This document shows, piece after piece, positions 1 to 63,209 of a stretch of 64,000 nt of DNA. Position 1 is the stretch's first letter; every line of letters starts with the position of its first letter. Below the pieces are notes generated by a model. It made no database searches. It was not told the DNA's origin and saw only the letters and a program-made list of their open reading frames with translations. The position numbers and the translations under genes were made by a program. Source of the stretch: a virus (Duplodnaviria; Caudoviricetes); the IMG/VR virus record IMGVR_UViG_3300032007_000080, positions 3,210 through 67,209 of that record. One strand, 5' to 3'.

Positions 1-251
1 ATTTTATGTCTTAATTCCAAATCTTTTCTATCACAAGTTAGATACACAACTAATGTGTCTTTGTTAGCCTCCAATAATTTATTTGTAAATTCTGTACTCA
101 TAAATCTATTGAATACTTCTGCATACGCAATTGTACTCATAAGGCCTCTACTACTAACTGGTATCATACGACCAGACATATAATCAACATAACTTACTAA
201 TGTATCTTTACCTGTACGGTCTAGTCCTTCAATTTCTACTCTAGCTATCAT
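1..251 (-). CDS. dNMP/thymidylate kinase-family protein, 5' part (runs off the window edge)
   Basis: Not in ORF track; hand translation MIARVEIEGLDRTGKDTLVSYVDY... has the TMK-type P-loop EGxDxxGKxT; RBS GAGGTG upstream. Confidence 0.75.
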   Translation of the reverse strand, partial: MIARVEIEGLDRTGKDTLVSYVDYMSGRMIPVSSRGLMSTIAYAEVFNRFMSTEFTNKLLEANKDTLVVYLTCDRKDLELRHK

Positions 252-27164: not shown

Positions 27165-27764
27165 CTATTTTTGGACAGGTTTTTTGCTTTGGAAATTGAA
27201 ATCAAAGTCGATACCATCTCCACCTTTTCCACCTTTATTTCCAAGTACTTTTTCATCAACATCTTTTAGTCTTTCATTAACTGCTTTATTAACTCTTTCT
27301 TGTAATTTTTCATTTATACCATCAATTCTATCTTGGAATGTATCAGGTAATGTAGATATATCAACGAATTCAAGAATTGCATCTCTGTCGTAACCTTTTT
27401 CTTTAATATATTTATCAACAGCTTTTTCTCTATCATTTATTGCATTTTTCTTTTCTGCCTCAGCTAATTTTTGATTTATTTTGTCTATTTCTCTTTTATA
27501 TTTTTCAGCCTCAGTTAATTTTGCCATTTCCTCAGCTTCTTTTTGTTTAGCATCTATGTCCTCTTGAATTGCTTTTCTAATTTCTTCTTCCCTACCAGCT
27601 AATGCTGCCTCCAATTTTTTATTTACCTCTGCATCTATGTCGGCTTTATTCTTTTCTAATGCTTTTGCTATCTTTTTATCAAAAGCAGCTTGATATTCAC
27701 CATCTTCTGCTAATATAGCATCTAAATCTAATTCTTCTCCGTTTTCATTTTTAAATTTTGCCAT
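27165..27764 (-). CDS. Capsid scaffolding protein (DUF4355-like)
   Basis: Highly charged E/K/A coiled coil (AEEMAKLTEAEKYKRE...VNKAVNERLK). Confidence 0.75.
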   Translation of the reverse strand: MAKFKNENGEELDLDAILAEDGEYQAAFDKKIAKALEKNKADIDAEVNKKLEAALAGREEEIRKAIQEDIDAKQKEAEEMAKLTEAEKYKREIDKINQKLAEAEKKNAINDREKAVDKYIKEKGYDRDAILEFVDISTLPDTFQDRIDGINEKLQERVNKAVNERLKDVDEKVLGNKGGKGGDGIDFDFNFQSKKPVQK

Positions 27765-28711
27765 CTTAAATTTTCTCCTTTCCTAAAAATTTCCGTGTTT
27801 CCCTCGGAAATTGGTGGTTGTTGCTGATTAAATGTACACCCAGCAGCACCCTTATGTCCTCCACCACCAAATACTTTAGCAGCGTAAGAACAATCAATAT
27901 CTTCCTTATTAGAATAGAAAGATACTACCCATTGTCTTCCATTAAAACATTCTGTAATACATACATCAACCTCGTCAATGGTTTCTCCAAAATATACTGA
28001 ACTAGCACATCCAATATTAAGTACTGCTACGTTAATATCACGTTCTGTATTAAATAACCATCCACTCAACATTCTTTTAAACATGTACTTTTCTCTAAAA
28101 TGAGAAGCCCAACTATCTCTAAATTCTGTGTATGTTCTACCTGTTTCAATGTAGTCGTCAATTAAATCTGGATTATTTACCATCTCGTCAATTAGTGGAA
28201 TAGATAACTGATTAGCTAAAGCCATATTTAATAACTCAGCCTCTTTTCTAACTGGACTATCTAATTTCCAACAGTCCCAAGCATCAACTAATTGTAACCA
28301 ATATGGTAACATTTCAACTAATTGGTCATAAGCCATTCTATCGACTTCGCTTTGTGTGACATTTGCTTCAAAAAATAAATAGGCTAGAGCAGCACCACAG
28401 AACCTCGTACTACGAATACCATTTAATTCTAACTCCTGGTCATCTTTGTAACGATTTATTGCTGTGATATGATGGTCTAACCAAATTACTTGACCGAAAG
28501 TACCTACTTTTTCTAATAATTCGTGATATTGTTCATTTGTGAAAGAATAATCTGTAATAATCACTCTATCACCTTCACTAATGTTAGAAAAATCTGGGTC
28601 TCGGTCATAATTGAAGTGTTCAATGTCACAGTTTTCTTCACCGAAATGTTGTTGTACTACATAAGCAGCACTATAACCATCCAAATCATTATGTGTAAGA
28701 ATATGTACCAT
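27728..28711 (-). CDS. DHH/DHHA1 phosphoesterase
   Basis: HNDLDG, ITDYS, WLDHH and GGGGHKGAAG motifs. Confidence 0.88.
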   Translation of the reverse strand: MVHILTHNDLDGYSAAYVVQQHFGEENCDIEHFNYDRDPDFSNISEGDRVIITDYSFTNEQYHELLEKVGTFGQVIWLDHHITAINRYKDDQELELNGIRSTRFCGAALAYLFFEANVTQSEVDRMAYDQLVEMLPYWLQLVDAWDCWKLDSPVRKEAELLNMALANQLSIPLIDEMVNNPDLIDDYIETGRTYTEFRDSWASHFREKYMFKRMLSGWLFNTERDINVAVLNIGCASSVYFGETIDEVDVCITECFNGRQWVVSFYSNKEDIDCSYAAKVFGGGGHKGAAGCTFNQQQPPISEGNTEIFRKGENLRWQNLKMKTEKN

Positions 28712-36919: not shown

Positions 36920-37774
36920 TTAATCCAAATCATAGCTTAAACTCTTATATTCGCCTTGATAAAATAGCACCCTTTCACCCAAATCTTTGCAACTATCACC
37001 GAGAATTATTCGCCTTTCCACATTATTTACTACTCTTAATCCAATTCTAGTTGGAATATTTGCTCTCAATTGTCCTGATAATATGGTAGCATCAGGTCTC
37101 TGTGTGCCTAACATCAGATGTATTCCAGATGCCCTTCCTAGAGTAGCTAATTTAACTAGGTAATATTCCATCATACCTCGAGAACCCAAATTGGTCTTGG
37201 CTCTATCACTATATATTAAATCTGCTAACTCATCTATTACCAACACAATTCTCTTACTTCCCCAAATTGGAGACTCATAACACATATCATCTGCATCAGC
37301 TCTCATATTATCTTCGGCATTTATTATTTGTTGGAATATTCCCGATACTTCAGGATTATCACCATAGAGTTCTTTTAACTTTTCTTGGATTTCTTTAATT
37401 TTATTATCTCTATCTGTACTCATTTCTCTTCCTGACACTCCCTCAAGCATAACACTTGACCAGTCCACATAATTTCTTGATTTAAGGTACTTATACCTCT
37501 CCCTCATTTCTTTTTCAAGACTACCTAATAATCTCAATACTCTTGGCCAATCATTGTCTATCTTCATTATTAAGTTATCTTCACCGACCATACATTGGTA
37601 ATCGACACATTTTGGGTCCACAATAACCACTCGACACTCATCACTCCTGAATATGTCTCGTAACATGTGTTTCAATAAATATGACTTACCAGACCCAGTA
37701 GAACCACCAATTAAGATATGTGGACATTTACATAAATCTATCTTTGTAAACTTATCAACACTTACTTCTATCAT
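36920..37774 (-). CDS. Stand-alone FtsK/SpoIIIE-domain ATPase
   Basis: HILIGGSTGSGKS, VDPKCVD, VIDELADL, GRASGIHLMLGTQRP; no TM domain. Confidence 0.9.
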   Translation of the reverse strand: MIEVSVDKFTKIDLCKCPHILIGGSTGSGKSYLLKHMLRDIFRSDECRVVIVDPKCVDYQCMVGEDNLIMKIDNDWPRVLRLLGSLEKEMRERYKYLKSRNYVDWSSVMLEGVSGREMSTDRDNKIKEIQEKLKELYGDNPEVSGIFQQIINAEDNMRADADDMCYESPIWGSKRIVLVIDELADLIYSDRAKTNLGSRGMMEYYLVKLATLGRASGIHLMLGTQRPDATILSGQLRANIPTRIGLRVVNNVERRIILGDSCKDLGERVLFYQGEYKSLSYDLD

Positions 37775-37784
37775 TGCTTCATTT

Positions 37785-37853
37785 CCTTTCTTCATTTTTA
37801 ATTTATTTTATATTTATATAGTATCATATATTGTAAATAAATTCAACCTTTTT
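37785..37853 (-). promoter_or_regulatory. Representative copy of the repeated early promoter/leader cassette
   Basis: AAGG-TTGAAT-17 nt-TACTAT (extended TG) then ATAAATATAAAATAAATTAA and RBS; about 12 related copies in the window. Confidence 0.8.
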
Positions 37854-41293: not shown

Positions 41294-41587
41294 TTAAATT
41301 TTATTATTTTCCAAAAAGTATTTCACATCTTCCACAGATTTTGCTATACAGAAATACCCACCAGACTTTTTAATTTGGATACCGTGTGCTATCTGGAGAG
41401 TACTAGCTTCATTATCTCCATCTTTACATTCTATACCAACAAATTTACCATTTATACAACAGATTATATCAGGTATACCAGCTCTCATAAATATCTCGCC
41501 GTGTACCTTAAAACAATATCCACCAATACTCCTAATATAATCTTGGATTTGTTTTTGAACTTTGGTTTCATTTTGTTTCTTATACAT
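41294..41587 (-). CDS. VRR-NUC domain nuclease (Holliday junction resolvase-like)
   Basis: AGIPDIICCINGKFVGIECK...STLQ. Confidence 0.85.
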   Translation of the reverse strand: MYKKQNETKVQKQIQDYIRSIGGYCFKVHGEIFMRAGIPDIICCINGKFVGIECKDGDNEASTLQIAHGIQIKKSGGYFCIAKSVEDVKYFLENNKI

Positions 41588-41590
41588 ATT

Positions 41591-43555
41591 TTATGGCTCC
41601 GTGTATTTATAACAATTAAATTTAGCTCCACCAACACTCATTACTTTCTTTGTCATACTTGCTGGTAAAGTCTTTCCAAAATTTCTGGTAAATGTTTTTG
41701 GCAATTCTGGTTTGATACTCATATCTTCACACCATTTTTTATAGTTAGAATAGATTTCATCAGTTGTTCTACCATCTAAATATCTGCATAATCCTGTAAC
41801 TCCACGATATTCTTCCACCATATATTGGAAAAATGATTGTATTGGGTCTTGATTTTCTGCAATAAAATCTTGTTCTAATTCATCTTGTTTTTCTAATCTA
41901 TGAAGATGTCCTACCTTAACTGCATTTCGATATGCAAAAACCGACGCCGTAAGCAAATATCTTAAATTATTTGCGTCCGCACATATCTTTTGATACAGCA
42001 AAATATCTAATTTGTCTGGGTCTAATTGCATATTGAATGGTACAAATACTAACCTACGTATCATACCTTTTGTTGTATCATTTATTCTTGGGATTTCATT
42101 ACAACACATAACAAATTGAGAATTTGGTTTCCATTTTATAGATTGTTTAAATTTTCTATGAACTTCAATAGAAGAACCTTGTGTTAATGTTTTTAATAAA
42201 CCTGTTTCTTTTAATGTGGTTATTCCAACATCATCTGTTACATTACATACTCCTCCAACAACTTGTTCTAACGCAAACTTATCATTGATACCTAATATAT
42301 TTGCATGTGTCATTTTATCTCCCATAATTCTATCAATTAAATCTAGTAATAAAGACTTACCATTAGCTCCATTACCATACCATATAAAAATTTTACCAAA
42401 TGATTTACTTGGTGACAACATACAACCCACGGATTCGAGTATAACTTTCTTAATATCTGGATTACCGCAACTTATTTCGTCTAAAAATGACACCATTCTA
42501 CCATCAAAACTATCAAATTCTTCTTGTGTCATTATTTCAAAAGGGTAATAAATATCAGTGTAAACTGTTCTCGTATTAGGCTTTATATCGTCTTTCCAAA
42601 AGGATACTAGATTTCTTCCACATAAAACATATTCATCGTTCCTATCATATTGGTATTTAGCCTTATTATCGTTCAACATAACGTTCACTTGATTTATCAC
42701 CTCTTCCATTTGCCATATACTCATATTTTTTGAGGCGTATTTCTGTTGCATATATGCTTTTAATGAATTTTCGTCAGTACTATATCTATCTATTCTATTG
42801 TCATAAAAAGCTAAAAAATCACCTCCAATTATACAGCCCCAATAATTTATTAAATCTTCTGCTTGTTTTATTATTGTTATTTTATCTTCACCTAATTCCA
42901 AATTGTCCCATTCTTCAGGTCTAATAGCAGTATTAAGTTCTTCTTGTTCTAGTGGACTAGTTAATACATAACTATTTATCATATCACACATAACAGTGTA
43001 TTCTTCATAACTAAATCCAGCTTTCTTCGCTTTAATCATTAGTTGGCTATGAAATAAATTATTTCTACCACCAGTTTGGTCTTTTGTTAAATCTTCTTGG
43101 TCTTTCTTTTTCTCTATAACATATAACCATCTTGGTGCGTAATCTAAATCATCTTCACTATCTGTATTGATTAGGACTTCTTCTCTGGTAACACCATCTA
43201 TTCTAATGGACTGATATGATTGTTTTGTTTCTTTTGTTCCACAAGCTTTAACATCACATTTCAAACCAATCCAATTAAACTCTTTTATATGGTCTTTTGC
43301 TTGATTAAGAGTTGTCTTAAACATAAAATGGAGACCTTTTGTTGTTTTTAACATTTTACATTTAAGACTTGATGCCATAATTAGTTTATGTATTATACTA
43401 ATATATGGTTGTTCATCAAAATCAAATACTATGTAGCCAGGAGGTACTATTCTACCATAATCATCTTTAAATGATGGATTTGTTACTTGTTCTAATGTGT
43501 AAGTATTTTTATCTAATCTTTTCTTTCCACTAGTTTTTACATATAAATATTCCAT
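41591..43555 (-). CDS. Primase-helicase, D5/P4 family
   Basis: N-terminal DFDE/KGLH primase motifs, GGRNN PriCT-like segment, SF3 Walker A GNGANGKS. Confidence 0.88.
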   Translation of the reverse strand: MEYLYVKTSGKKRLDKNTYTLEQVTNPSFKDDYGRIVPPGYIVFDFDEQPYISIIHKLIMASSLKCKMLKTTKGLHFMFKTTLNQAKDHIKEFNWIGLKCDVKACGTKETKQSYQSIRIDGVTREEVLINTDSEDDLDYAPRWLYVIEKKKDQEDLTKDQTGGRNNLFHSQLMIKAKKAGFSYEEYTVMCDMINSYVLTSPLEQEELNTAIRPEEWDNLELGEDKITIIKQAEDLINYWGCIIGGDFLAFYDNRIDRYSTDENSLKAYMQQKYASKNMSIWQMEEVINQVNVMLNDNKAKYQYDRNDEYVLCGRNLVSFWKDDIKPNTRTVYTDIYYPFEIMTQEEFDSFDGRMVSFLDEISCGNPDIKKVILESVGCMLSPSKSFGKIFIWYGNGANGKSLLLDLIDRIMGDKMTHANILGINDKFALEQVVGGVCNVTDDVGITTLKETGLLKTLTQGSSIEVHRKFKQSIKWKPNSQFVMCCNEIPRINDTTKGMIRRLVFVPFNMQLDPDKLDILLYQKICADANNLRYLLTASVFAYRNAVKVGHLHRLEKQDELEQDFIAENQDPIQSFFQYMVEEYRGVTGLCRYLDGRTTDEIYSNYKKWCEDMSIKPELPKTFTRNFGKTLPASMTKKVMSVGGAKFNCYKYTEP

Positions 43556-43568
43556 TTAATGACACCTC

Positions 43569-43928
43569 CTATTCTTTTTCCCTCCTAACCAGTATTTTAT
43601 CAAAAGGGTCTTTTATATTTCTTTTCCTAATCGCATTTAACATTGCAACTACTGTACGCATACGTAAACCCCTATGATTTTTTGATGTTTCACTAAAAGC
43701 CATAGTGAACATAGCTTTACTGATACCTAATTCATTTGGAATATCAAAATTATGAAAACCACTAATGTCTAACATACACTTTAATTCATTTAAGTTTACG
43801 TAATCACTTGAGTTTATCAATTCTATATCTTCTTGTGTTAATTCAATTTCTTCATCTGTTAAGTGTAATTTCTTTCGTATTCTAGGTTCTATCGCAAAGA
43901 TGTCCATCCATATTAAATCATTTTCCAT
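43569..43928 (-). CDS. Hypothetical protein (possible HTH)
   Basis: Coupled between the GT genes and primase. Confidence 0.55.
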   Translation of the reverse strand: MENDLIWMDIFAIEPRIRKKLHLTDEEIELTQEDIELINSSDYVNLNELKCMLDISGFHNFDIPNELGISKAMFTMAFSETSKNHRGLRMRTVVAMLNAIRKRNIKDPFDKILVRREKE

Positions 43929-43929
43929 T

Positions 43930-44724
43930 TTAATCTGCCTCCTTCATTAACTGAATATACTGGTCTATCACAGATTTTGTCCATTTGTATATTTCTAATT
44001 GTGGTTCTAAATCATAAACATGCGCATCCATATCTGTTCTAACATTACCCCACAATTCTTTTATACTCCAATACAGATGTTGACCTATTCCTGATGTTTT
44101 CATATCTAGGAACTCTTTAATGCTGTCATAATCGTTCCATTTACCTTCAAATAATGATGGTAACCAATAAATACATAATTCTTTTGGGTACCTCCTCATC
44201 ATAAGGTTTATATATTTTTGTGAATTGAATAAATAACTGTGTCCAATATATCTGTCATCATAATTACATAACATATCTGCAAAAAATCTATCTGCTTCTA
44301 CAGGGTCTGAACACATCATCATACAATTACAAATCATATTTTTATCTTCCCTAGGGTATAATACTGAATAACCTTCTTGTATCATAGTATCCCATAATTC
44401 TGTAAATGGTTTCCAGAATATAATGTCTGTATCAAAATATATACCACCGAATTTATTCAAATACCATAATCTTAAATAATCACTTTGGTGTGCTACATTA
44501 TCTGTTATACTTTCTACGTGTTTTATTAAATCATCTGGTATACGTTCTACTTTAGTTATTGTCCTATCCAAGAAAGATAAATGTAATTCGTGATTTGTAT
44601 ATATTGTGATTTGTTTTTTATTCGCAACCTGCGCTGATGCTATACATATTTCTTCTAAAAATGGCATTGCATCCCAATCTTTTTTGGTTAGCCATATAGT
44701 AAATAAATGGTCTCTAGGTTCCAT
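43930..44724 (-). CDS. Glycosyltransferase, GT32/DXD sugar-binding family (paralog 2)
   Basis: AHQSDYLRLWYLNKFGGIYFDTD. Confidence 0.85.
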   Translation of the reverse strand: MEPRDHLFTIWLTKKDWDAMPFLEEICIASAQVANKKQITIYTNHELHLSFLDRTITKVERIPDDLIKHVESITDNVAHQSDYLRLWYLNKFGGIYFDTDIIFWKPFTELWDTMIQEGYSVLYPREDKNMICNCMMMCSDPVEADRFFADMLCNYDDRYIGHSYLFNSQKYINLMMRRYPKELCIYWLPSLFEGKWNDYDSIKEFLDMKTSGIGQHLYWSIKELWGNVRTDMDAHVYDLEPQLEIYKWTKSVIDQYIQLMKEAD

Positions 44725-45641
44725 TACTTTTCTTCCTTTCTAAATTGGTCTAAATATTGTTCTCCATACAATTTACTTAAAATTGGAGTTAATATTTTAT
44801 CTTTTAACAAATCTCTTGTTTCTGCATTAACCATCAAGTCAATATATTTTTCTACGCAGTCTTTTAAATGTCTACATAACCAAGATGGGTGTTTATCGTC
44901 CATAAATTCTAAATCTAATTTATCACGAGCTTCTCTCCATTTAGGATTTGTATTATATAGATGTATACCATAACCTCTTAATGGACATTCTTCTTCAAAT
45001 AACATATTCAAATCTCCATTTGGACCATCTTCCCAATTTGGAAAGAACATACCTTCTTGTAATGGTAATACTTGAACTATATCTCTGTGTTTTCTATTTA
45101 ATAAATATAAATACTTGATACTGTTAAATGTATATGATGTTTTAACATAATGTTTTCTGTAATTTTCCAACAAATCTTCAAAATACATTTTACCCATATC
45201 TGTTAATCTAGCCATAAATGCATTACATATTCTATTTGTATATTCATAAGCCATCATAACCGACGCATTTGAACCATCTACTAATTCTTCAATAGATGAA
45301 TAACACAATAAATCTGTATCTACATATATTCCACCACGGTCTTTTAATATTGTGTATCTAATATAATCACTTCTTTGTGCAAATCTCATACCTTCCGGTG
45401 TTTCATCAGTTATTATATTTTTAGCCTCATCAAATAAACCTGGGAACTCATCTTCTATTATTCTAACTTCTGTTGTATCTCTTGAAAGTAGATTAAAACA
45501 AAATTTTGGATTATCAGTATATAACACTACTTTAAATGTTGGGTTCATAACTTGCCAAGTAGCTAAACATACTTCATAAATATATGGCATACTAATTGTG
45601 CCTGGTTTACATAACCATATACCAAAAATTTCTCTATTCAT
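44724..45641 (-). CDS. Glycosyltransferase, GT32/DXD sugar-binding family (paralog 1)
   Basis: AQRSDYIRYTILKDRGGIYVDTD. Confidence 0.85.
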   Translation of the reverse strand: MNREIFGIWLCKPGTISMPYIYEVCLATWQVMNPTFKVVLYTDNPKFCFNLLSRDTTEVRIIEDEFPGLFDEAKNIITDETPEGMRFAQRSDYIRYTILKDRGGIYVDTDLLCYSSIEELVDGSNASVMMAYEYTNRICNAFMARLTDMGKMYFEDLLENYRKHYVKTSYTFNSIKYLYLLNRKHRDIVQVLPLQEGMFFPNWEDGPNGDLNMLFEEECPLRGYGIHLYNTNPKWREARDKLDLEFMDDKHPSWLCRHLKDCVEKYIDLMVNAETRDLLKDKILTPILSKLYGEQYLDQFRKEEK

Positions 45642-46162
45642 TATCTAGCACCTCCAATAATCATTTGACTAATAACTTTTTCTTGTTCCATAATTCTCTT
45701 TTGTATATCTTGTTTTATCTCACAAATAATTGGAGATGTATTACCTAATTCAATTTCTCTATCAACATACGCATTAACACTTAAACTATCTCCTAATTTA
45801 ACTATTGCACCAGCTAATGATGGGTTTTCCTTATCTTCTAATTCGTCCCATAATTCAGCTACTGAGCTAGGTAATTCTTCGTGTACATATTTTTTTTCTA
45901 ATTTATCACAAAGTTGTTTTAACTCAGGATTTTCATATTTTACATCGTGAGGTAAATCACTTGTAAATACTTCCCCAATATCGTGTATTATTGCCATAGC
46001 TATTGCTTTATTTCTTGTTTCTTTTAATATATGATATTTTTCTGCTATCTCAAAACAATAATATGCTACACTATAACTATGTTGTGCTAAATCTTCATTT
46101 TTAATTCTGTTTCTATTTGCATATCTAATTATTCCATGCATTCTCATTGGGTCAAATTTCAT
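45641..46162 (-). CDS. HD-domain 5'-deoxynucleotidase (YfbR/DatZ-like)
   Basis: RY...EDLAQHSYSVA...IIHDIGEVFTSDLP...KLGD. Confidence 0.85.
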   Translation of the reverse strand: MKFDPMRMHGIIRYANRNRIKNEDLAQHSYSVAYYCFEIAEKYHILKETRNKAIAMAIIHDIGEVFTSDLPHDVKYENPELKQLCDKLEKKYVHEELPSSVAELWDELEDKENPSLAGAIVKLGDSLSVNAYVDREIELGNTSPIICEIKQDIQKRIMEQEKVISQMIIGGAR

Positions 46163-46173
46163 TAAAATCCCTC

Positions 46174-46623
46174 CTAATCTACTTTGAAATTAAAATATTC
46201 ATCTGCGTTTGGTAATATTCCATTTTCTAAATAATCACTTAATTCGGTCCAATTTTGAATTACATTACCATCACACGCCATAGCTAACATTAAATTAACA
46301 TGCTCACTATCGTGAATTTTATCGTTCCAAAATAGAACTACTGGAATGTTTCTACTTAAAGCATAACCAATTTCAACTGATGTACCAGTATCTCTAAATG
46401 ATATGTTTGCAAATAGATATTTACTATGTTTTATAGCCTCTAAATCAGCTAAAAATACATTATACATATCTTTCTTTGTTGCGTTTTCTGGTAATGTACC
46501 TGCATCTAATCTTGGAGAAAAACATTTTTTACCGTGTAACTTAAACATATCTTCAATTTTTTCTTGCATATTTAATTGGTCATCATTAAAAAATGGACCT
46601 GCTAAATAATAATCATATATCAT
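46174..46623 (-). CDS. Nucleoside 2-deoxyribosyltransferase/nucleotide N-glycosidase family protein
   Basis: YYLAGPFF...FSP...DLEAIK...DTGTSVEIGYA. Confidence 0.85.
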   Translation of the reverse strand: MIYDYYLAGPFFNDDQLNMQEKIEDMFKLHGKKCFSPRLDAGTLPENATKKDMYNVFLADLEAIKHSKYLFANISFRDTGTSVEIGYALSRNIPVVLFWNDKIHDSEHVNLMLAMACDGNVIQNWTELSDYLENGILPNADEYFNFKVD

Positions 46624-46741
46624 ATAAATTTATCTCCTTTCTATTCCAGGATAATCCAGGATAATCCAGGTTCAATTTTATATTTCTATCTATGAAATTA
46701 TATTATAATGATATAAAATCAAACCTGGTCAAACCTAGTAA

Positions 46742-47710
46742 TTATTTGTCTTTTTTATAATAGTCCACAGTTTTTATTCTATTTTTAGCTACTAATGGAC
46801 TTTCACTATCATAAGTAGTTGGTAATTCCTCACCATTCTTTTCTTTTTCTAACCAGCGTTCTATCATTTCCTTTTCACCTAGGAATAATAACTCTGGTTT
46901 CTCTTTGTATATCTTTTCAAGTTCTAATTTCCAACTAGATTTTCTCCAATCATTATGAGCACATTCATCGTGTACATAATTATCTGGTAAACTAAATCTC
47001 TCAAAGTCATTATTATAAGTATGGTCTCTTGTATAAGCTTTCTTATTATCTGCAAATGTTAATAACCAATTCCATAACTTTTTACTTAATGGGTCTTTGA
47101 TTTTTTCAACTTCTTTTTTAAGTTCTAATAACATTAGTCTGTAAATATAGTTTATTTCATCTGCAAAATTATTCTCTGTTCTGCTATTACAACTTCTCAT
47201 AAAATTAAATATTGGAGCATTATAACATATTGATATTGTTTGAGAATGTAAACCAATATATCTACTTTCCATGTATGGTACTTCTGCCTCACACATTTCA
47301 ATATATACTTCTTCTAACATTTTTTGAGCTTTGTCTATTTTTTCCATCCATTTTTTGTTATCATAAATTACTGCTGGTATAACAAAATCTTGTGTTAATG
47401 GTCTTACATCTCCTGATGCACTACAAAAGAAACCACGTTCTCTTGTTAATTGAGCTAAACATATTCTACTGATATTATTTATTTGGAAAGATACTGAAGT
47501 ACCTTCAAATGCATATTTTGGAAACGTTTTACCATTGATTATTTCGTCAACTATTTTAATACATCTAGGGTCTTCTGGATTATATTGGTCAATACCTTCG
47601 TAGAACTCTCCAATATTACCGAACATAACACATTGTCTACCTAAATCTTCTCCAACGAAGTTTAATAATCTAACGTTTATATCTTCATAACCTCTGTGAT
47701 ATTTTGCCAT
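46742..47710 (-). CDS. Divergent ThyX-like (flavin-dependent thymidylate synthase family) protein
   Basis: SFQINNISRICLAQLTRERG resembles the ThyX F.I.GISR..SHQLxRHR motif, but with substitutions. Confidence 0.65.
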   Translation of the reverse strand: MAKYHRGYEDINVRLLNFVGEDLGRQCVMFGNIGEFYEGIDQYNPEDPRCIKIVDEIINGKTFPKYAFEGTSVSFQINNISRICLAQLTRERGFFCSASGDVRPLTQDFVIPAVIYDNKKWMEKIDKAQKMLEEVYIEMCEAEVPYMESRYIGLHSQTISICYNAPIFNFMRSCNSRTENNFADEINYIYRLMLLELKKEVEKIKDPLSKKLWNWLLTFADNKKAYTRDHTYNNDFERFSLPDNYVHDECAHNDWRKSSWKLELEKIYKEKPELLFLGEKEMIERWLEKEKNGEELPTTYDSESPLVAKNRIKTVDYYKKDK

Positions 47711-47711
47711 A

Positions 47712-49592
47712 TTATTGCTCCCTTCCTAATTTTACTTGTACTCTTCTCCAATCTTCTTCAAGACTATAATTTTTACCTTTTGTTCTTTCACTAGTTTCTA
47801 ATGTAAAATCACAAATTTTTCTTTTGATTTCATTTTCGTACCATTCCAAGTCTAAATCATCAAGAACATCACTAACATGTACTCCACGAATATCATTATT
47901 ATTTATCCAGCAATGTTCTGGTAAACTTTCAACATTGTCCCAAGTATCTTTACCATTCTTCATTTTCTTAACTTTACCATATTTTTCTTTATTCTTCGCT
48001 GCGAATACACGATTACATCTATTCGGAGTAGGTATAATTTCTCCATCTACCTCATAAGCACACGCTTTATACATACCACCGATTTTCTTTACCATTTGGA
48101 ATTTCCATAATAACCAATCTGTACCATATATTGTTTCGTGTGGGTCTTTATTATAAAGAAGATAATCAACTATACCAACATCTAAAATATCAAGATTTCG
48201 TCTACATTGGAATAGACCGTGTTCGTCATTATACCTTTGAGCAACATACGCTCCACGAGGTGTAACTCCACCATCTTCTCTTTCAAAAACATAATTATTT
48301 ACATCTTTTTGAAATATCTTTTTACCAATAGTTTTCTCCAATATTAGACCTGTCTTATCTTCCCATCTTTTTATTTCTCTATCACAAGCCTCTTTATCGT
48401 GAGGTATTATGAATATACCATCTGTATTACTTTGAATTAAAGTCATATATGGTTCAAGTTTTTCAATTAAGTCTATCAATAATAATTGACCTGTAATACA
48501 CATCCAATTGTTATTTCTTTCATCGTAAAGTTTTGAAAATTTAGCTTTCATAGCTCCTGATACTGTATTAACAACTAATTTTAAACCATAAGGCATAGCT
48601 TTTTCAACAGCTGTCAATTCATCTCCACGTCCTTCTGCTAAATATGTGTTAACCTTCTTTTTTATGGCTAATCTTTTTGCAACTATTTTAGGAAAATTCT
48701 CTGGATGTTTCATAGCTCTACTACACAAATTAAAGTTAATCATCATATTTGGATAGTATGAACCAACATCTACATCCCATATTTCACCTTCATAATGATA
48801 TTTTGTTCTAGCTCCGTGAAGACCACCAATCGCTATTGTGTGTTCTACTCCTGCGATATTTATTTTCAACTTATTTTTATAATCTAATTTATCACAGTCT
48901 GTAAACATCTCTAACGCTTTATGATACTCTGGGTTATTTATTTCTACTGGCGCAATAGATGGGTCATAAGGTGCTTGTTTATCTTTAAAATCACTATATT
49001 GACCTTCCAATATTTCACCTGTAACCTTTTGATTAGTAGCACTTATCATAGATTTTGGTAATTTATACTCAGCAATTAGTGCCATTCTAATTTTAATACT
49101 TTCTTTTTGTTCTATCATTTCTTGCCAAGTAGAATATAAATCGTGTCTATTATATTTTTCTGTAAGTTCTCTTTCTTCTTTTGTTAATTTTCTATCTAAA
49201 TTAAAGTCAACCTCTGTTTCACAAATCTCTAATCCTAGAAAACCTTCGGCCTCTTTTAATGAATACATAACTTTATCTAATAGGATGTCCCAATCGTATA
49301 ATGTAATTTTATTTAATTTATTATTGCGTATAATTTCTCTACCATTTCTACCACCGATTATTTGGTCTGAATAATCTTTTACTTTTTCTGGTGAATTACC
49401 TAACAATATCAATTTATATAAGATACTATCATAAGAACCAGAATTATGACCACACCAAATATCTTCTTTGTGTTTCTCATAATCTTCTTTGATTTTATCT
49501 AAATCTTCGTTCCAATATTGTAGATAATTTTGACCATCATATATTCCAACTAAATAATCGTGAGCGAATATTTCTAAGTCGTATGTTCTCAT
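47712..49592 (-). CDS. DNA polymerase, family B
   Basis: Exo YDLE and HNSGSYD; DVGSYYPNM; KLVVNTVSG; QSNTDG. Confidence 0.9.
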   Translation of the reverse strand: MRTYDLEIFAHDYLVGIYDGQNYLQYWNEDLDKIKEDYEKHKEDIWCGHNSGSYDSILYKLILLGNSPEKVKDYSDQIIGGRNGREIIRNNKLNKITLYDWDILLDKVMYSLKEAEGFLGLEICETEVDFNLDRKLTKEERELTEKYNRHDLYSTWQEMIEQKESIKIRMALIAEYKLPKSMISATNQKVTGEILEGQYSDFKDKQAPYDPSIAPVEINNPEYHKALEMFTDCDKLDYKNKLKINIAGVEHTIAIGGLHGARTKYHYEGEIWDVDVGSYYPNMMINFNLCSRAMKHPENFPKIVAKRLAIKKKVNTYLAEGRGDELTAVEKAMPYGLKLVVNTVSGAMKAKFSKLYDERNNNWMCITGQLLLIDLIEKLEPYMTLIQSNTDGIFIIPHDKEACDREIKRWEDKTGLILEKTIGKKIFQKDVNNYVFEREDGGVTPRGAYVAQRYNDEHGLFQCRRNLDILDVGIVDYLLYNKDPHETIYGTDWLLWKFQMVKKIGGMYKACAYEVDGEIIPTPNRCNRVFAAKNKEKYGKVKKMKNGKDTWDNVESLPEHCWINNNDIRGVHVSDVLDDLDLEWYENEIKRKICDFTLETSERTKGKNYSLEEDWRRVQVKLGREQ

Positions 49593-49666
49593 TTTATATC
49601 TCCTCTCCTTAAAGTTAACATAAAATATAACAAAAATAGGGAAACAATAAAGTCTCCCTAAATGTA

Positions 49667-50110
49667 TTATTTGTTGACATCTCTATATGATTTATTTTGG
49701 AAACCTGATTTGCTTGTTTCTAATACTAATGTTAATGTAGTACCTTCTAATTTTTCTAATTGTTCTACATATCCTGGAATATCAATAGCATCTAAACCTA
49801 ATTCTCTTAATTTTGTAACAGTTCTTGCGATTGCTTGTTTAGTTTTTGCTAAATCTCCATCTTTATTTGCTAACATTAGATAATCCCAAACATGTCCTGT
49901 TTGACCTTCTAAACCAAATTCTACTTTAATCATAGGTACATTAGTTTGTTTTGAATGTGTGAACTCAGCAGCTATAACTTCTGCAGAATATTCACCATCT
50001 GGAATATCTGGAAAATCTCCACCTACGTTTTCTTCTAGTTTTTCATTTCCACCTATATCTTGGAAAATACTATCTAATTCTTGTAAATCTTTTAAATCGT
50101 CTTTGTCCAT
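49667..50110 (-). CDS. DUF669-type single-stranded DNA-binding protein
   Basis: DIPDGEYSAEV...SKQTNVPMIKVEF. Confidence 0.7.
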   Translation of the reverse strand: MDKDDLKDLQELDSIFQDIGGNEKLEENVGGDFPDIPDGEYSAEVIAAEFTHSKQTNVPMIKVEFGLEGQTGHVWDYLMLANKDGDLAKTKQAIARTVTKLRELGLDAIDIPGYVEQLEKLEGTTLTLVLETSKSGFQNKSYRDVNK

Positions 50111-50130
50111 TATAAATTCCTCCTATTAAA

Positions 50131-50781
50131 TTATTTTTTAGTTTCAGGTTTCTTCATATTATTTAAGAAAGCCTCTTTACTATTGTCTATCTCTGTTGAA
50201 ATTAGTGGTATTCTTGTTCCACCAAATTCTTCGTCAAGATGTTTGATGTGTAACTTATATTGGTTTCCAACTTTTTCATCTGGTACAATAACAGCTCTCA
50301 TAACAATAGTCATTAAACCATTCATTTTGTCTTTTAACACTTTTTCAAATCCTGGCTCAAATTTAGTGATTTCTCTACCAAATTTGTTTTTCTCAATTAT
50401 TACTTCTTCGTGTGAAATGAATATTACATTATCACATAAATTAGCAAGAGATACTATTTGTTCCCATAAAAAGCCTCTCAACATTGAATAACCTTTAAAA
50501 GCTATTTCACTTTCGTGAGAAACTTTATTGTCTGAGTACCATTTGAATTTCAAATAATCTAGTAGATATTCTGTTGTATCAATAACTAACCATTTAGGAT
50601 TAGCTTTTCTAATCTCTTGCACAGCTTTATCTAAATCTTGATAATTTTTAATTCTGTAAATATCTTCTGCTGGAAATAGATATTCAGCGTTACCATCAGT
50701 AGACAATATTTTAGCACCCTCGAATTGACTAGCGAATGTAGTTTTTCCATTAAAGGGTGCTCCGTAAATCCATATTCTCAT
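50131..50781 (-). CDS. AAA_24/Sak4-like ATPase (recombinase/annealase)
   Basis: IWIYGAPFNGKTTFA; LVIDT; FISHE. Confidence 0.8.
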   Translation of the reverse strand: MRIWIYGAPFNGKTTFASQFEGAKILSTDGNAEYLFPAEDIYRIKNYQDLDKAVQEIRKANPKWLVIDTTEYLLDYLKFKWYSDNKVSHESEIAFKGYSMLRGFLWEQIVSLANLCDNVIFISHEEVIIEKNKFGREITKFEPGFEKVLKDKMNGLMTIVMRAVIVPDEKVGNQYKLHIKHLDEEFGGTRIPLISTEIDNSKEAFLNNMKKPETKK

Positions 50782-56152: not shown

Positions 56153-56734
56153 CTACTTTAGTTTATTTTTGTACCAATTTATTCTTTGATATACGGCTGA
56201 TTTTGTAGGTACACCATATTCAGCCATAGTTTCTTCTATTCCGTGTGTTTCATAATAATTTATAAATGCTTGCATCTCTACTGGGCCAGACACCCTTCTT
56301 CCTTTATTCTTTTTAGTTTTTTCTTCTAATCGTTCTTCTGTGGTCATCTTTTTCATTGTATTACCTAATAAATGATTTGGAATATCAACCAAACCTAACG
56401 CTGCTTTTAAACATTCATCAATTTCTTTCATTATATTTTCATCTAACATACCCATAAAATTTTCTAATAGATTTTTGTTTATAGTTATAATATCTTCTGC
56501 TAATACCATACTATCTTCTCTAGGATTTAAACTCATTATGTAATGTGTTGGTTGGTCTGGTCTTTTCTCGGTATTTGTTGTACAAGGAACAATAGTAACA
56601 TTATTAGATAAACAATTAGCTACGTTATTAGATACAATAATAACTGGACGTCTTCCACTCTGTAAATTTGGATTTGTGTCATATCTTGGAATATTTGCCC
56701 AGTATACCATACCTCTAGCATATTTTGTAAACAT
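56153..56734 (-). CDS. PemK/MazF-family endoribonuclease with a C-terminal extension
   Basis: RGMVYWAN...QSGRRPVIIVSNNVAN...TIVPCTT...VLAEDIITINK. Confidence 0.85.
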   Translation of the reverse strand: MFTKYARGMVYWANIPRYDTNPNLQSGRRPVIIVSNNVANCLSNNVTIVPCTTNTEKRPDQPTHYIMSLNPREDSMVLAEDIITINKNLLENFMGMLDENIMKEIDECLKAALGLVDIPNHLLGNTMKKMTTEERLEEKTKKNKGRRVSGPVEMQAFINYYETHGIEETMAEYGVPTKSAVYQRINWYKNKLK

Positions 56735-59860: not shown

Positions 59861-60280
59861 TCAAACTCCAGTAGAACCAAATCCACCTTGTCTTTCTCTA
59901 TTTTTAACTAAATCTAGTCCCATAGTTTTGTATTCACATAAAATAGCTTGCGCAATTCTATCTCCAATACTAACTTCAAAGTCCCAATCATTAGTGTTAT
60001 AAAGAATTACTCCAATTTCATTTGGAAAATAATCAGCATCGATTGTTCCAGGTGTGTTTAAAACAGTGATACCTTGTTTTAATGCGAGTCCACTTCTTGG
60101 AACTATTGCAAGATATTCATTTTCTTCCATTGAACAAGTAATTCCTGTTTTTACTAACGCATGTCCATGCGCTGGAATAACTACATCTTCTGCTGCAGTT
60201 AAATCATAACCTGCAGAAAATTGTGTACCTCTTTGAGGTAATGGCCCTTCATAAGGCTTAACATGTACAAAATTTGACAT
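59861..60280 (-). CDS. dut: Trimeric dUTPase
   Basis: AGYDL, IVPRSG, PGTIDADY, RIAQ and RQGGFGSTG motifs. Confidence 0.95.
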   Translation of the reverse strand: MSNFVHVKPYEGPLPQRGTQFSAGYDLTAAEDVVIPAHGHALVKTGITCSMEENEYLAIVPRSGLALKQGITVLNTPGTIDADYFPNEIGVILYNTNDWDFEVSIGDRIAQAILCEYKTMGLDLVKNRERQGGFGSTGV

Positions 60281-60281
60281 A

Positions 60282-60671
60282 TTATCTAGCTCCTTTCTTT
60301 TTTGGAGTGTAAATTGTTCCACCCCATTCTTCAATTTGTTTTACAAAATTAGTGTATGAAACACCGGCAAAAATATAATTATTATCTTTTGTAATCCAAG
60401 GTACTCTGTGATTATTTATATCTTCTACGGAATATCTTGAATTATCTACATTACTGCAAGGCATTTCCCAACCCCAAGGCAATTCAAAAAATACTTCTTT
60501 TAATTGAATTTGGTGTGGTTGATGTTCTGTATCATACCATTCATCGTATGGTGTACCTGCATTATGTTCATAAGGTCTATCGTTCCAATCATCTCCCCAT
60601 TGATGTTCCCAATCACTTGTAAAATATGCTTTTGGTTCATCAGGGTCAACGTAACATAATTTATATACCAT
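60282..60671 (-). CDS. Hypothetical protein
   Basis: QWGDDWNDRPYEHNAG motif. Confidence 0.6.
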   Translation of the reverse strand: MVYKLCYVDPDEPKAYFTSDWEHQWGDDWNDRPYEHNAGTPYDEWYDTEHQPHQIQLKEVFFELPWGWEMPCSNVDNSRYSVEDINNHRVPWITKDNNYIFAGVSYTNFVKQIEEWGGTIYTPKKKGAR

Positions 60672-61885: not shown

Positions 61886-62383
61886 TTAATAACCTCCTAT
61901 CAACATATTATCTGTCCATTCTTTTGGGTTAATTTCTAGTATTTGGAATTGTTTTACTCTACATACTATTTTATCTATTCCAGAATTTACTATCAATTTT
62001 TTACAAATATGACAAGGATTTGGATTAGGTACATAATTCCAATTACCATCTAAATCCATACATTCTTTACCAACTAAATATAATGTAGAACCTTTAGTTT
62101 CTCCATTAGCAAATAATATAGCATTCATTTCTGCATGTACAGCTATACATTGTTCATAACCTTCACCTCGGCCAAGATTATTCTTTTTACGATATTCATA
62201 AAGTCTACAAAATCCATTTTCATAACAATCTGTACAACCTCTTGGTGCCCCATTAAAACCAGTAGATAATATTTGGTCATCTTTAACTAGAACTGCTCCC
62301 CAATGTTTATTCATACAAGTACTTCTAGTTAATACCACTTCTGCAATATCTAAATAATAAACATCTTTGTTAATTCTGCTCAT
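61886..62383 (-). CDS. dCMP deaminase
   Basis: RSTC...GAVLVKD...TGFNG, HAEMNA and PCHIC zinc motifs. Confidence 0.92.
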   Translation of the reverse strand: MSRINKDVYYLDIAEVVLTRSTCMNKHWGAVLVKDDQILSTGFNGAPRGCTDCYENGFCRLYEYRKKNNLGRGEGYEQCIAVHAEMNAILFANGETKGSTLYLVGKECMDLDGNWNYVPNPNPCHICKKLIVNSGIDKIVCRVKQFQILEINPKEWTDNMLIGGY

Positions 62384-62900: not shown

Positions 62901-63209
62901 CTATCTGTGTTTTTCATACCAGTTCATAGCAATTCTTTCAAGTGTTCTACTTATCTTCTTATTATAAATATCTTGAATTTTTGACAAATCGCAATTATAA
63001 TATAGCATAAGTTGAGATAATACAACTAATACATCAGCGCATTCATCTTCTACATCTTCTTTTTTCTTTGTATAACAAGCGTTTGCCAATTCTCCAACTT
63101 CTTCATTTAACTTCATAATTTCAGTTTCTACACCAAAATATTTAGTTATCGCCTTCAATTTTTCCTCGTTCGGTTTCACTATGTTTTCCAAAACTAATTT
63201 CACCTCCAT
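62901..63209 (-). CDS. MazG-like nucleotide pyrophosphohydrolase
   Basis: KLNEEVGEL...VEDECADVLVVLSQL. Confidence 0.75.
   Translation of the reverse strand: MEVKLVLENIVKPNEEKLKAITKYFGVETEIMKLNEEVGELANACYTKKKEDVEDECADVLVVLSQLMLYYNCDLSKIQDIYNKKISRTLERIAMNWYEKHR

Follow-up and report, generated by a model that had tools for sequence, protein, structure and literature searches.

A ThyX-fold protein, conserved nucleotide enzymes and paired glycosyltransferases in a phage replication operon: a candidate route to hypermodified pyrimidines

What does a phage make with a divergent relative of the thymidylate synthase ThyX, encoded between a DNA polymerase and a primase and followed by a deoxyribosyltransferase-like protein, an HD-domain hydrolase, and two glycosyltransferases (GTs)? 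The question is raised by a 64,000-nucleotide stretch of a tailed phage (hereafter, the window), namely bases 3210-67209 of the 67.2-kb IMG/VR record IMGVR_UViG_3300032007_000080, for which completeness is estimated at 92%. The window has a GC content of approximately 30%, and all annotated genes are located on the minus strand. A first-pass annotation made from the sequence interpreted the genes at 43569..49592 as a pathway of DNA hypermodification. Here, we describe a conserved four-gene core around the ThyX-like gene, for which the production of a non-canonical 5-substituted deoxyuridine nucleotide is, on comparative grounds, the more probable function.

The ThyX-like protein and its operon

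The gene of the presumed core enzyme (46742..47710, minus strand) encodes 322 amino acids. Its product matches the Pfam model Thy1 (E-value 2.1e-10; 41.1 bits vs. a cut-off of 24.8) and fails the NCBIfam thyX equivalog model (20.1 vs. 87.9 bits). When the AlphaFold2 (AF2) model of the protein (predicted local distance difference test, pLDDT, of 93) was compared with PDB structures using Foldseek, all top matches were either ThyX or the UMP methylase PolB, with E-values from 3e-8 to 2e-7 and a TM-score on the target of about 0.7. By this model, the protein has the ThyX fold.

M. tuberculosis ThyX and canonical ThyX enzymes from phages served as references in an alignment of the ThyX-like family. 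The ThyX signature RHRxxSxxxxSxR(Y) is not retained: the window protein reads R-E-R...S-G-D-V, RHR being changed to RER and SQRY to SGDV. Throughout the family, the first Arg of RHR and the Ser of SxRY are kept, and the His of RHR, the conserved second Arg, and the Arg-Tyr pair of SxRY are replaced; two phosphate-binding Arg are among the replaced positions. Overall, the window protein is without most of the flavin/folate signature residues and half of the phosphate-binding ones. The HxSxxEH motif has become KTFP..EG, with both His gone; their positions are occupied by K61 and G70 in the alignment with canonical phage ThyX and by T62 and G70 in that with M. tuberculosis ThyX. In place of the HAQxEIR motif, the family has an invariant D-E-x-N, adding D184, E185, and N187 as new invariant residues. 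The nucleotide-binding arginines R150 and R177 are invariant across the family, and equivalents of the M. tuberculosis ThyX nucleotide-binding residues R95, R172, and R199, plus S105, are kept. Compared to ThyX, the family has an additional conserved C-terminal extension of approximately 100 residues. We take the HxSxxEH histidines and the other lost residues to constitute the flavin/folate site of ThyX structures, and we infer from the sequences that flavin binding has been lost.

The protein appears not to be a normal thymidylate synthase, because the thyX equivalog model fails, the signature-motif residues named above are lost while R150 and R177 are invariant, no ThyA homolog (PF00303) was found in the 67-kb record, and a family search of the genome yielded no second Thy1 gene. 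The family, whose members have about 320 residues, has 415 homologs in a collection of 5.8 billion proteins; at 50% identity, its members among 1.84 billion representative proteins fall into only 74 clusters. None of the homologs is informatively named, one JGI record reading "hypothetical protein."

The ThyX-like gene is the second in a minus-strand block that starts with a family B DNA polymerase, PolB (47712..49592; phrog_1252, E-value 2.6e-122, and a weak Pfam DNA_pol_B match), and proceeds through the NDT-family gene (46174..46623), the HD-domain gene (45641..46162), the glycosyltransferase genes GT_a (44724..45641) and GT_b (43930..44724), and an open reading frame (ORF) of 119 codons (43569..43928) to a primase-helicase of the D5/DUF5906 type (41591..43555; PF19263, E-value 4.9e-15; phrog_864, E-value 7.9e-68). 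All genes named in the first-pass annotation are found at the positions given there, on the minus strand. From PolB to the primase, the intergenic gaps are 1, 118, 11, -1, -1, 1, and 13 nucleotides (nt), i.e., from -1 to 13 nt save the single gap of 118 nt. The start of GT_a overlaps the stop codon of the HD gene, the start of GT_b overlaps the stop codon of GT_a, and each gene of the block is preceded by a GGAGG-type ribosome-binding site. A consensus scan of positions 41400-50300 found only one terminator-like site, a minus-strand hairpin upstream of PolB (49637..49660) that marks the start of the unit. Because the genes are tightly spaced or overlapping and the only terminator-like site is situated upstream of PolB, the block is predicted to be one replication-linked operon. 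In a promoter scan, promoter-like sites were no more frequent than in shuffled sequence, and therefore no internal promoter is claimed for the 118-nt gap between the ThyX-like and NDT genes.

The order of the ThyX-like, NDT, HD, two GT, small ORF, and primase genes is kept in the related loci L081 and L083, where the GTs are 52-57% identical to those of the window. Since the block is retained at this level of divergence, the arrangement is not a chance one. The 119-amino-acid product has no match in Pfam, PHROG, or NCBIfam, and its place in both relatives is taken by an ORF of 118-123 amino acids. In 25-28 related loci, PolB and the ThyX-like gene are no more than 10 kb apart. In L081 and L083, several shorter ORFs with HNH endonuclease genes among them stand where the window has the single gene for the 626-amino-acid PolB (L081:2255-5928, L083:2785-5921), which suggests that the polymerase gene has been split by mobile elements.

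The conserved core and the variable slot beside it

The locus comparison covered 73 viral loci, two metagenomic relatives, the Geobacillus phage GR1, and the window, with all ORFs clustered jointly; 74 loci carry the ThyX-like gene and serve as the denominator for the core-gene counts. The NDT gene is present in 68 of them, the HD gene in 62, and a homolog of a small dTMP-kinase-like protein in 49; in almost all cases, these genes are immediate neighbors. Hence, the conserved unit consists of four genes, encoding the NDT-family, HD, ThyX-like, and kinase-like proteins. GT_a and GT_b were found in none of the 70 other loci, and therefore the GT pair is a lineage-specific add-on. The co-occurrence analysis, which the first-pass annotation had proposed as a check, supports the association of the nucleotide enzymes and places the GTs, found in the window lineage only, outside the conserved core.

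The NDT-family protein (149 amino acids) matches PF05014 with an E-value of 2.9e-16 (60.1 bits vs. a cut-off of 28.8), and its best PDB match is 6evs, the N-deoxyribosyltransferase NDT of B. psychrosaccharolyticus (E-value 3.8e-10). DTGTSVEIG of the window protein aligns to DTGTAWELG of 6evs, so that the D-x-G-T-x-x-E motif with the catalytic Glu nucleophile is present. It had initially been likened to DNPH1 and MilB, N-glycosidases of deoxynucleoside monophosphates (dNMPs). We take that type to be marked by an N-terminal phosphate-binding G-S-I-R-G-G motif, with Ser replacing the Asp of NDT. A part of this definition comes from PMC12884076. The window protein has the nucleoside-transferase motifs AGPFF (within YLAGPFFND) and RDTGT (DTGTxxE) instead and does not resemble the DNPH1/MilB type.

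The HD-domain protein (173 amino acids) is a relative of the YfbR-like 5'-deoxynucleotidases (PF12917, E-value 1.4e-21; 77.5 bits vs. a cut-off of 25.9). Aligned with Lin2634 and 1xx7, the protein shows the metal residues H27 and H59-D60, followed by a further Asp. As the protein fails the YfbR equivalog model (55.6 vs. 122 bits), its substrate may differ. The kinship with DatZ proposed in the first-pass annotation could not be upheld: the closest structures are Lin2634/YfbR (E-value 1e-8), whereas DatZ is matched weakly (E-value 6.7e-5 over 96 residues). The PHROG label of the protein is "dATP triphosphohydrolase." No match to PurZ (PF00709) was found in the genome. A Z-genome (2-aminoadenine) interpretation was rejected, given the absence of PurZ, the weak similarity to DatZ, and a genomic context that points to a pyrimidine.

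The dTMP-kinase-like P-loop gene is cut by the edge of the window, with only its 3' part inside (1..251, minus strand); the whole gene, L002:3038-3460 in the numbering of the full record, encodes 140 amino acids. A dNMP kinase had been annotated at this position; the gene end is indeed there, but its thymidylate-kinase signal is weak (Thymidylate_kin, E-value 1.6e-4), and the dTMP-kinase equivalog model fails by a wide margin. The protein is 31% identical (E-value 2e-24) to the product of the gene located directly downstream of the ThyX-like gene in 49 of the 74 loci; in the window phage, this gene is not linked to the cassette. The expected enzymes of deoxyuridine monophosphate (dUMP) supply are encoded on the minus strand as well: a dUTPase (59861..60334; PF00692, E-value 2.7e-28) and a deoxycytidine monophosphate (dCMP) deaminase (61886..62383; PF00383, E-value 1.2e-15), together with a MazG-like NTP pyrophosphohydrolase of 102 amino acids (62901..63209; PF03819, 28.4 bits, above the cut-off). 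In 19 loci, a dCMP deaminase homolog is encoded no farther than 10 kb from the cassette, and in 22, the cassette is accompanied by a MazG/dUTPase_2-like gene.

The slot beside the core was surveyed in 36 lineages, and in approximately 20 of them, group-transfer enzymes of many kinds are encoded directly downstream of the cassette. The two GT32-like GTs occupy this place in the window lineage, a Caps_synth-type GT (E-value 1.6e-34) in L026, and a sub-threshold TAGT-like GT (26 vs. 27.5 bits), upstream of an NAD-dependent sugar epimerase, in L052 and L040. A GT of 459 amino acids is encoded between the HD and kinase genes in GR1. Other lineages have an S-adenosylmethionine-dependent methyltransferase (four lineages) or an aldo-keto reductase (four lineages) in the slot. 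DNA glycosyltransferases have been described in such pairs with a sugar epimerase (bioRxiv 10.1101/2023.12.21.572611). Known hypermodification pathways have this kind of architecture, in which transferases are exchanged beside a fixed core.

A complete lic-like set, comprising a choline/APH-type kinase, a nucleotidyltransferase, a BCCT choline-type transporter, and a LicD phospho-alcohol transferase, occupies the slot downstream of the cassette, between the ThyX-like and PolB genes, in 6-8 of the 36 lineages, all distinct from that of the window (e.g., L024:14178-15146, L027:11424-12332, L025:12087-12854, L045:13011-14822, and L037:13300-14800). Such a set could add a phosphocholine-type decoration to DNA bases or modify wall teichoic acid.

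The glycosyltransferases and comparison with known systems

GT_a (305 amino acids) and GT_b (264 amino acids) match PF04488 with E-values of 1e-11 and 1.2e-10, respectively; the scores of the two GTs, 45.8 and 42.3 bits, are well above the cut-off of 23. Their Pfam matches are Gly_transf_sug, Caps_synth, and TcdA_TcdB. The two proteins are paralogs (30% identity, E-value 2e-28), and both have a DTD (DXD) motif. The AF2 model of GT_a (pLDDT 90) corresponds to a retaining-type GT-A fold, and the donor is likely a uridine diphosphate (UDP)-sugar. Neither protein has a signal peptide or a membrane segment. The GT_a family has 26 known homologs, all within the lineage of the window phage and at least 45% identical; several come from contigs 65-68 kb long. 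The tandem pair is retained in L081 and L083. Comparisons with the transferases of other lineages gave no kinship: hhalign assigned a probability of 0.2% to a relation between the GT_a family and the TAGT-like neighbor, the Caps_synth GT of L026 yielded a local match around the DXD motif only (35% probability), and the 459-amino-acid GT of GR1 is unrelated to GT_a. No T4 GT was present among the Foldseek matches of GT_a listed at ranks 1-50. A viral structure library contains many DXD GTs from giant viruses and phages, none with a characterized role on DNA, and therefore it does not discriminate between the possible acceptors.

The cultured phages were represented by 50,697 phage records. Neither megablast with the whole block nor tblastn with the ThyX-like protein gave anything significant, and at E-values up to 10, tblastn retrieved only canonical ThyX at 30-44% query cover. 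The NDT protein matches only 15 of these records, including Carin-5, YerA41, its relative vB_Yru_GN1, Listeria LIS04, and GR1.

GR1 (OK896991), with the relevant genes at 23.9-29.7 kb, is the only cultured phage found to have homologs of all four core genes and, judging from these similarities, the closest cultured relative. Its HD protein is 33% identical to that of the window (E-value 2e-33), its P-loop protein is 26% identical to the kinase-like protein (E-value 5e-13), and its ThyX-like protein, also of 322 amino acids, is aligned with the window family by hhalign at 98.9% probability (E-value 3e-17). Unlike the window protein, the ThyX-like protein of GR1 keeps RHR. The GR1 cluster holds a GT, as does the window, and adds thioredoxin, RNase H, and a flavin-reductase-like nitroreductase; its polymerase is of the PHP/DnaE type, in contrast to PolB of the window. 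Publications found on GR1 deal with its endolysin and with phages of thermophiles.

The phages SP-15, YerA41, and Carin-5 have DNA with glycosylated C5 linkers of the dihydroxypentyl type on uracil (PMC13697223, PMC5977210), and in SP-15, ribose label enters the linker, which is synthesized at the nucleotide level (PMC5977210, PMC13697223). According to family searches, these phages, GR1, and the window have in common a Thy1-derived protein, an NDT-family protein, and a YfbR-like HD protein; SP-15, YerA41, and Carin-5 also encode dUMP-supply enzymes, as does the window. The ThyX derivatives of these three phages have approximately 390-430 amino acids, compared to 322 in the window, and the genes are scattered rather than joined in one operon, except that in SP-15, the double NDT gene and the orphan gp130 are about 1.3 kb apart. 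The genomes of these jumbo-type myoviruses measure approximately 145-222 kb and encode a PolA-UDG polymerase, whereas the window phage has 67 kb and PolB, and their sugar enzymes differ from the window GTs. Orthology of the window protein to SP-15 gp130, YerA41 gp081, or the Carin-5 ThyX derivative was considered and rejected, as no similarity was found beyond the weak Thy1 signals that connect those proteins with the fold. The tie to these phages lies in a shared gene set and not in orthology. SP-15 has a normal ThyX besides the orphan derivative (family search; PMC5977210).

Two observations on these genomes may be added. In SP-15, a short-chain dehydrogenase gene (L090:695-1339) ends where gp130 begins, with the double NDT gene about 1.3 kb upstream; the three may form a compact unit for the pentyl side chain. 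In YerA41, gp086 (L079:5989-6525), named "mannosyltransferase" in GenBank, is an NDT-family protein (PF05014, E-value 4.9e-15; 28% identical to the window NDT).

The T-even pathways, i.e., glucosylation of hydroxymethylcytosine (hmC) in T4 and the formation of arabinosyl-5-hydroxycytosine in RB69 and DLP3, combine a thymidylate synthase homolog, a cognate kinase, and DNA GTs (PMC13326640). The logic resembles the one proposed for the window: an enzyme of a thymidylate synthase superfamily yields a modified dNMP, a small kinase acts on it, the canonical nucleotide is removed, and GTs act on the base in DNA. The T-even enzymes, however, have the ThyA fold, act on dCMP, and are paired mostly with GT-B transferases, whereas the window has a ThyX fold, no ThyA, and GT-A/DXD GTs, and uracil, not cytosine, is the base suggested by its dCMP deaminase and dUTPase. 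Membership in a T4-like hmC pathway was rejected, as there is no ThyA and no GT-B or TAGT transferase. The T4 analogy drawn in the first-pass annotation therefore survives in a loose form, with SP-15, YerA41, Carin-5, and GR1 being closer.

In Z-genome phages, the NDT-family enzyme DmtZ both eliminates a canonical dNMP and produces its modified counterpart (PMC12884076). Together with DatZ, it offers a precedent for an NDT-family protein and an HD protein that clear the canonical nucleotide in a base-replacing phage (PMC12884076). Compared to the DmtZ/DatZ systems, the window has no PurZ, an HD protein nearer to YfbR, nucleoside-type NDT motifs, and a pyrimidine context.

Proposed pathway and competing interpretations

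In the proposed pathway, the dCMP deaminase, dUTPase, and MazG-like protein of the phage would supply a dUMP pool, the ThyX-like enzyme would place a non-methyl group on C5 of the uracil nucleotide, and the dedicated kinase would phosphorylate the product. The HD protein might convert thymidine monophosphate (dTMP) to thymidine, and the NDT-family protein might move the deoxyribose of thymidine onto another base, so that together they would deplete the thymidine pool and recycle deoxyribose. PolB would then incorporate the modified nucleotide instead of some or all thymidine, and GT_a and GT_b, as lineage-specific tailoring enzymes, would use UDP-sugars to glycosylate a hydroxyl of the base with one or two sugars, probably after replication. 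If the core does make a non-canonical base, it is quite likely that the GTs act on it. The complete chain, from a 5-substituted deoxyuridine to sugar transfer onto the base, is a tentative reading to which we give slightly less than an even chance. The most specific version is doubtful: a ThyX-fold enzyme lacking the flavin/folate site would yield a previously undescribed, hydroxyl-bearing 5-substituted deoxyuridine, the GTs would be the first of their family to act on DNA, and sister lineages would add phosphocholine, methyl groups, or other sugars. As for the original hypermodification logic (a modified pyrimidine dNMP, a reshaped nucleotide pool, and decoration by GTs), comparative genomics supports its general outline, while sugar transfer to DNA still has the standing of a proposal. 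DNA is suggested as the acceptor solely because of the operon position of the GTs, their translational coupling to the HD gene, and the analogy with other lineages.

Several facts weigh against a hypermodification pathway. None of the 50,697 cultured-phage records has a close homolog of the ThyX-like protein; when the family was compared by hhalign with SP-15 gp130, YerA41 gp081, and the Carin-5 derivative, the probabilities were 0.1-0.5%. Carriers of the cassette are readily assembled from ordinary metagenomes, which would not be expected for a base replacement that is both very bulky and complete. To our knowledge, GT32/DXD enzymes act on glycans, lipids, and proteins, and we know of no family member that acts on DNA. 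GT_a has no match to the TAGT/JGT DNA GTs, PF20691 is absent from the genome at an E-value of up to 1, both GTs are acidic (pI of about 5; 5.1 for GT_a), and the top Foldseek matches of GT_a, SetA, YeGT, and PaToxG, are protein-glycosylating toxins. Finally, a dCMP deaminase, a dUTPase, a ThyX-type protein, and a dTMP-kinase-like protein would also meet the ordinary dTTP (thymidine triphosphate) need of an AT-rich phage.

The last point leads to an interpretation by thymidylate supply and salvage, in which the ThyX-like protein would be an unusual but genuine dUMP methylase or would support one, the kinase would be a dTMP kinase, and the HD and NDT proteins would rebalance host-DNA deoxynucleosides toward the A+T-rich genome, the GTs and other transferases being unrelated genes in a permissive slot. 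The enzymes just listed form the textbook dTTP route, and a genome of 30% GC without another thymidylate synthase has a real need for dTMP. Moreover, the protein exceeds the Pfam gathering score for Thy1 and has the predicted ThyX fold, its GR1 relative keeps RHR and adjoins a nitroreductase-type flavin reductase, and the phage DNA assembles normally from metagenomes. All the same, we consider this interpretation rather unlikely. It is difficult to reconcile with the replacement of the flavin/folate residues and of two phosphate-binding Arg, with the new invariant D184, E185, and N187 across the family, or with the failure of both the thyX and dTMP-kinase equivalog models by wide margins. Nor is it easy to ascribe to chance the varied group-transfer enzymes directly downstream of the core in about 20 of the 36 lineages, or the overlap of the GT start with the HD stop codon at a position that is kept at 52-57% identity. 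In addition, SP-15 encodes a normal ThyX alongside the orphan derivative.

Two further interpretations were considered. The core might make a modified pyrimidine while the GTs glycosylate a host or phage protein, or a cytoplasmic precursor of a wall polymer, for host takeover or phage exclusion. The GT_a structure is nearest to SetA (Legionella), YeGT (Yersinia), and PaToxG (Photorhabdus), which share the fold and the DXD motif and act on proteins or glycans, and then to LgtC, glycogenin, and LARGE1; the Pfam families, the same-fold viral GTs with no DNA link, the absence of the GTs from the 70 other loci, and the acidity of both proteins point the same way. Unlike the toxin-type GTs, however, the two window paralogs are short and soluble, and their genes stand in tandem in a phage operon of replication and nucleotide genes, translationally coupled to the HD gene between polymerase and primase; the proteins have neither signal peptides nor membrane segments. 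The equivalent slot elsewhere holds the TAGT-like GT with its epimerase, the arrangement already described for DNA GTs (bioRxiv 10.1101/2023.12.21.572611), and the GR1 cassette contains a GT as well. We consider a modified pyrimidine combined with a non-DNA acceptor of the GTs distinctly unlikely. Lower still is the probability that the cassette only reshapes the nucleotide pool and leaves the phage DNA unchanged, either countering a defense that depletes or poisons deoxynucleoside triphosphates or destroying a toxic nucleotide of the host, with the ThyX-fold protein in the role of a binding or sequestering subunit. A non-catalytic binder would be compatible with flavin-site residues having apparently been lost, the HD, NDT, and MazG-type enzymes are catabolic, and the dCMP deaminase weakly resembles anti-phage dCTP deaminases. 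On the other side, the strictly conserved pocket with its new invariant acidic and amide residues suggests catalysis, a dedicated kinase adjacent in 49 of the 74 loci implies an anabolic product, and tailoring enzymes adjoin the cassette. We regard pool reshaping of this kind as improbable.

Should the hypermodification pathway be real, it would constitute a second, ThyX-based route to hypermodified pyrimidines beside the ThyA-based routes of T-even, SPO1-type, and ΦW-14-type phages, and it would offer candidate genes for how SP-15-type bases are made, a long-unsolved question, as well as a new class of DNA glycosyltransferase. The 415 ThyX-like homologs extend the reach of the cassette to hundreds of uncultured phages, and if the most specific version given above were true, these would contain a whole family of undescribed DNA bases. 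Hypermodified bases bear on the evasion of restriction and CRISPR, on the host range of therapeutic phages, and on the sequenceability of phage DNA. A fixed core with swappable tailoring enzymes also provides a simple experimental handle.

A spore-forming Firmicutes (Gram-positive) host is suggested by an endolysin with Amidase_2 and SH3 domains, by the ribosome-binding sites of the GGAGG type, and by the SpoVS gene of relatives. The record bases ahead of the window (L002:120-2968) encode, after the kinase-like gene, a DNA ligase of the ATP-dependent kind and a helicase of the SNF2 type; in the linear record, these replication genes stand apart from the main block. Among the early genes, 56153-56734 encodes a 193-amino-acid protein with a PemK/MazF-like toxin domain (E-value 3.6e-18). 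A DHH/DHHA1-like phosphoesterase (27728-28711; weak matches) is encoded between the scaffold and Mu-F/portal genes, and GR1 likewise has a DHH phosphoesterase, which adjoins its NDT cluster. Downstream of the primase block, an FtsK/SpoIIIE-family ATPase (36920-37795; E-value 8.8e-22) is kept in L081 and L083.

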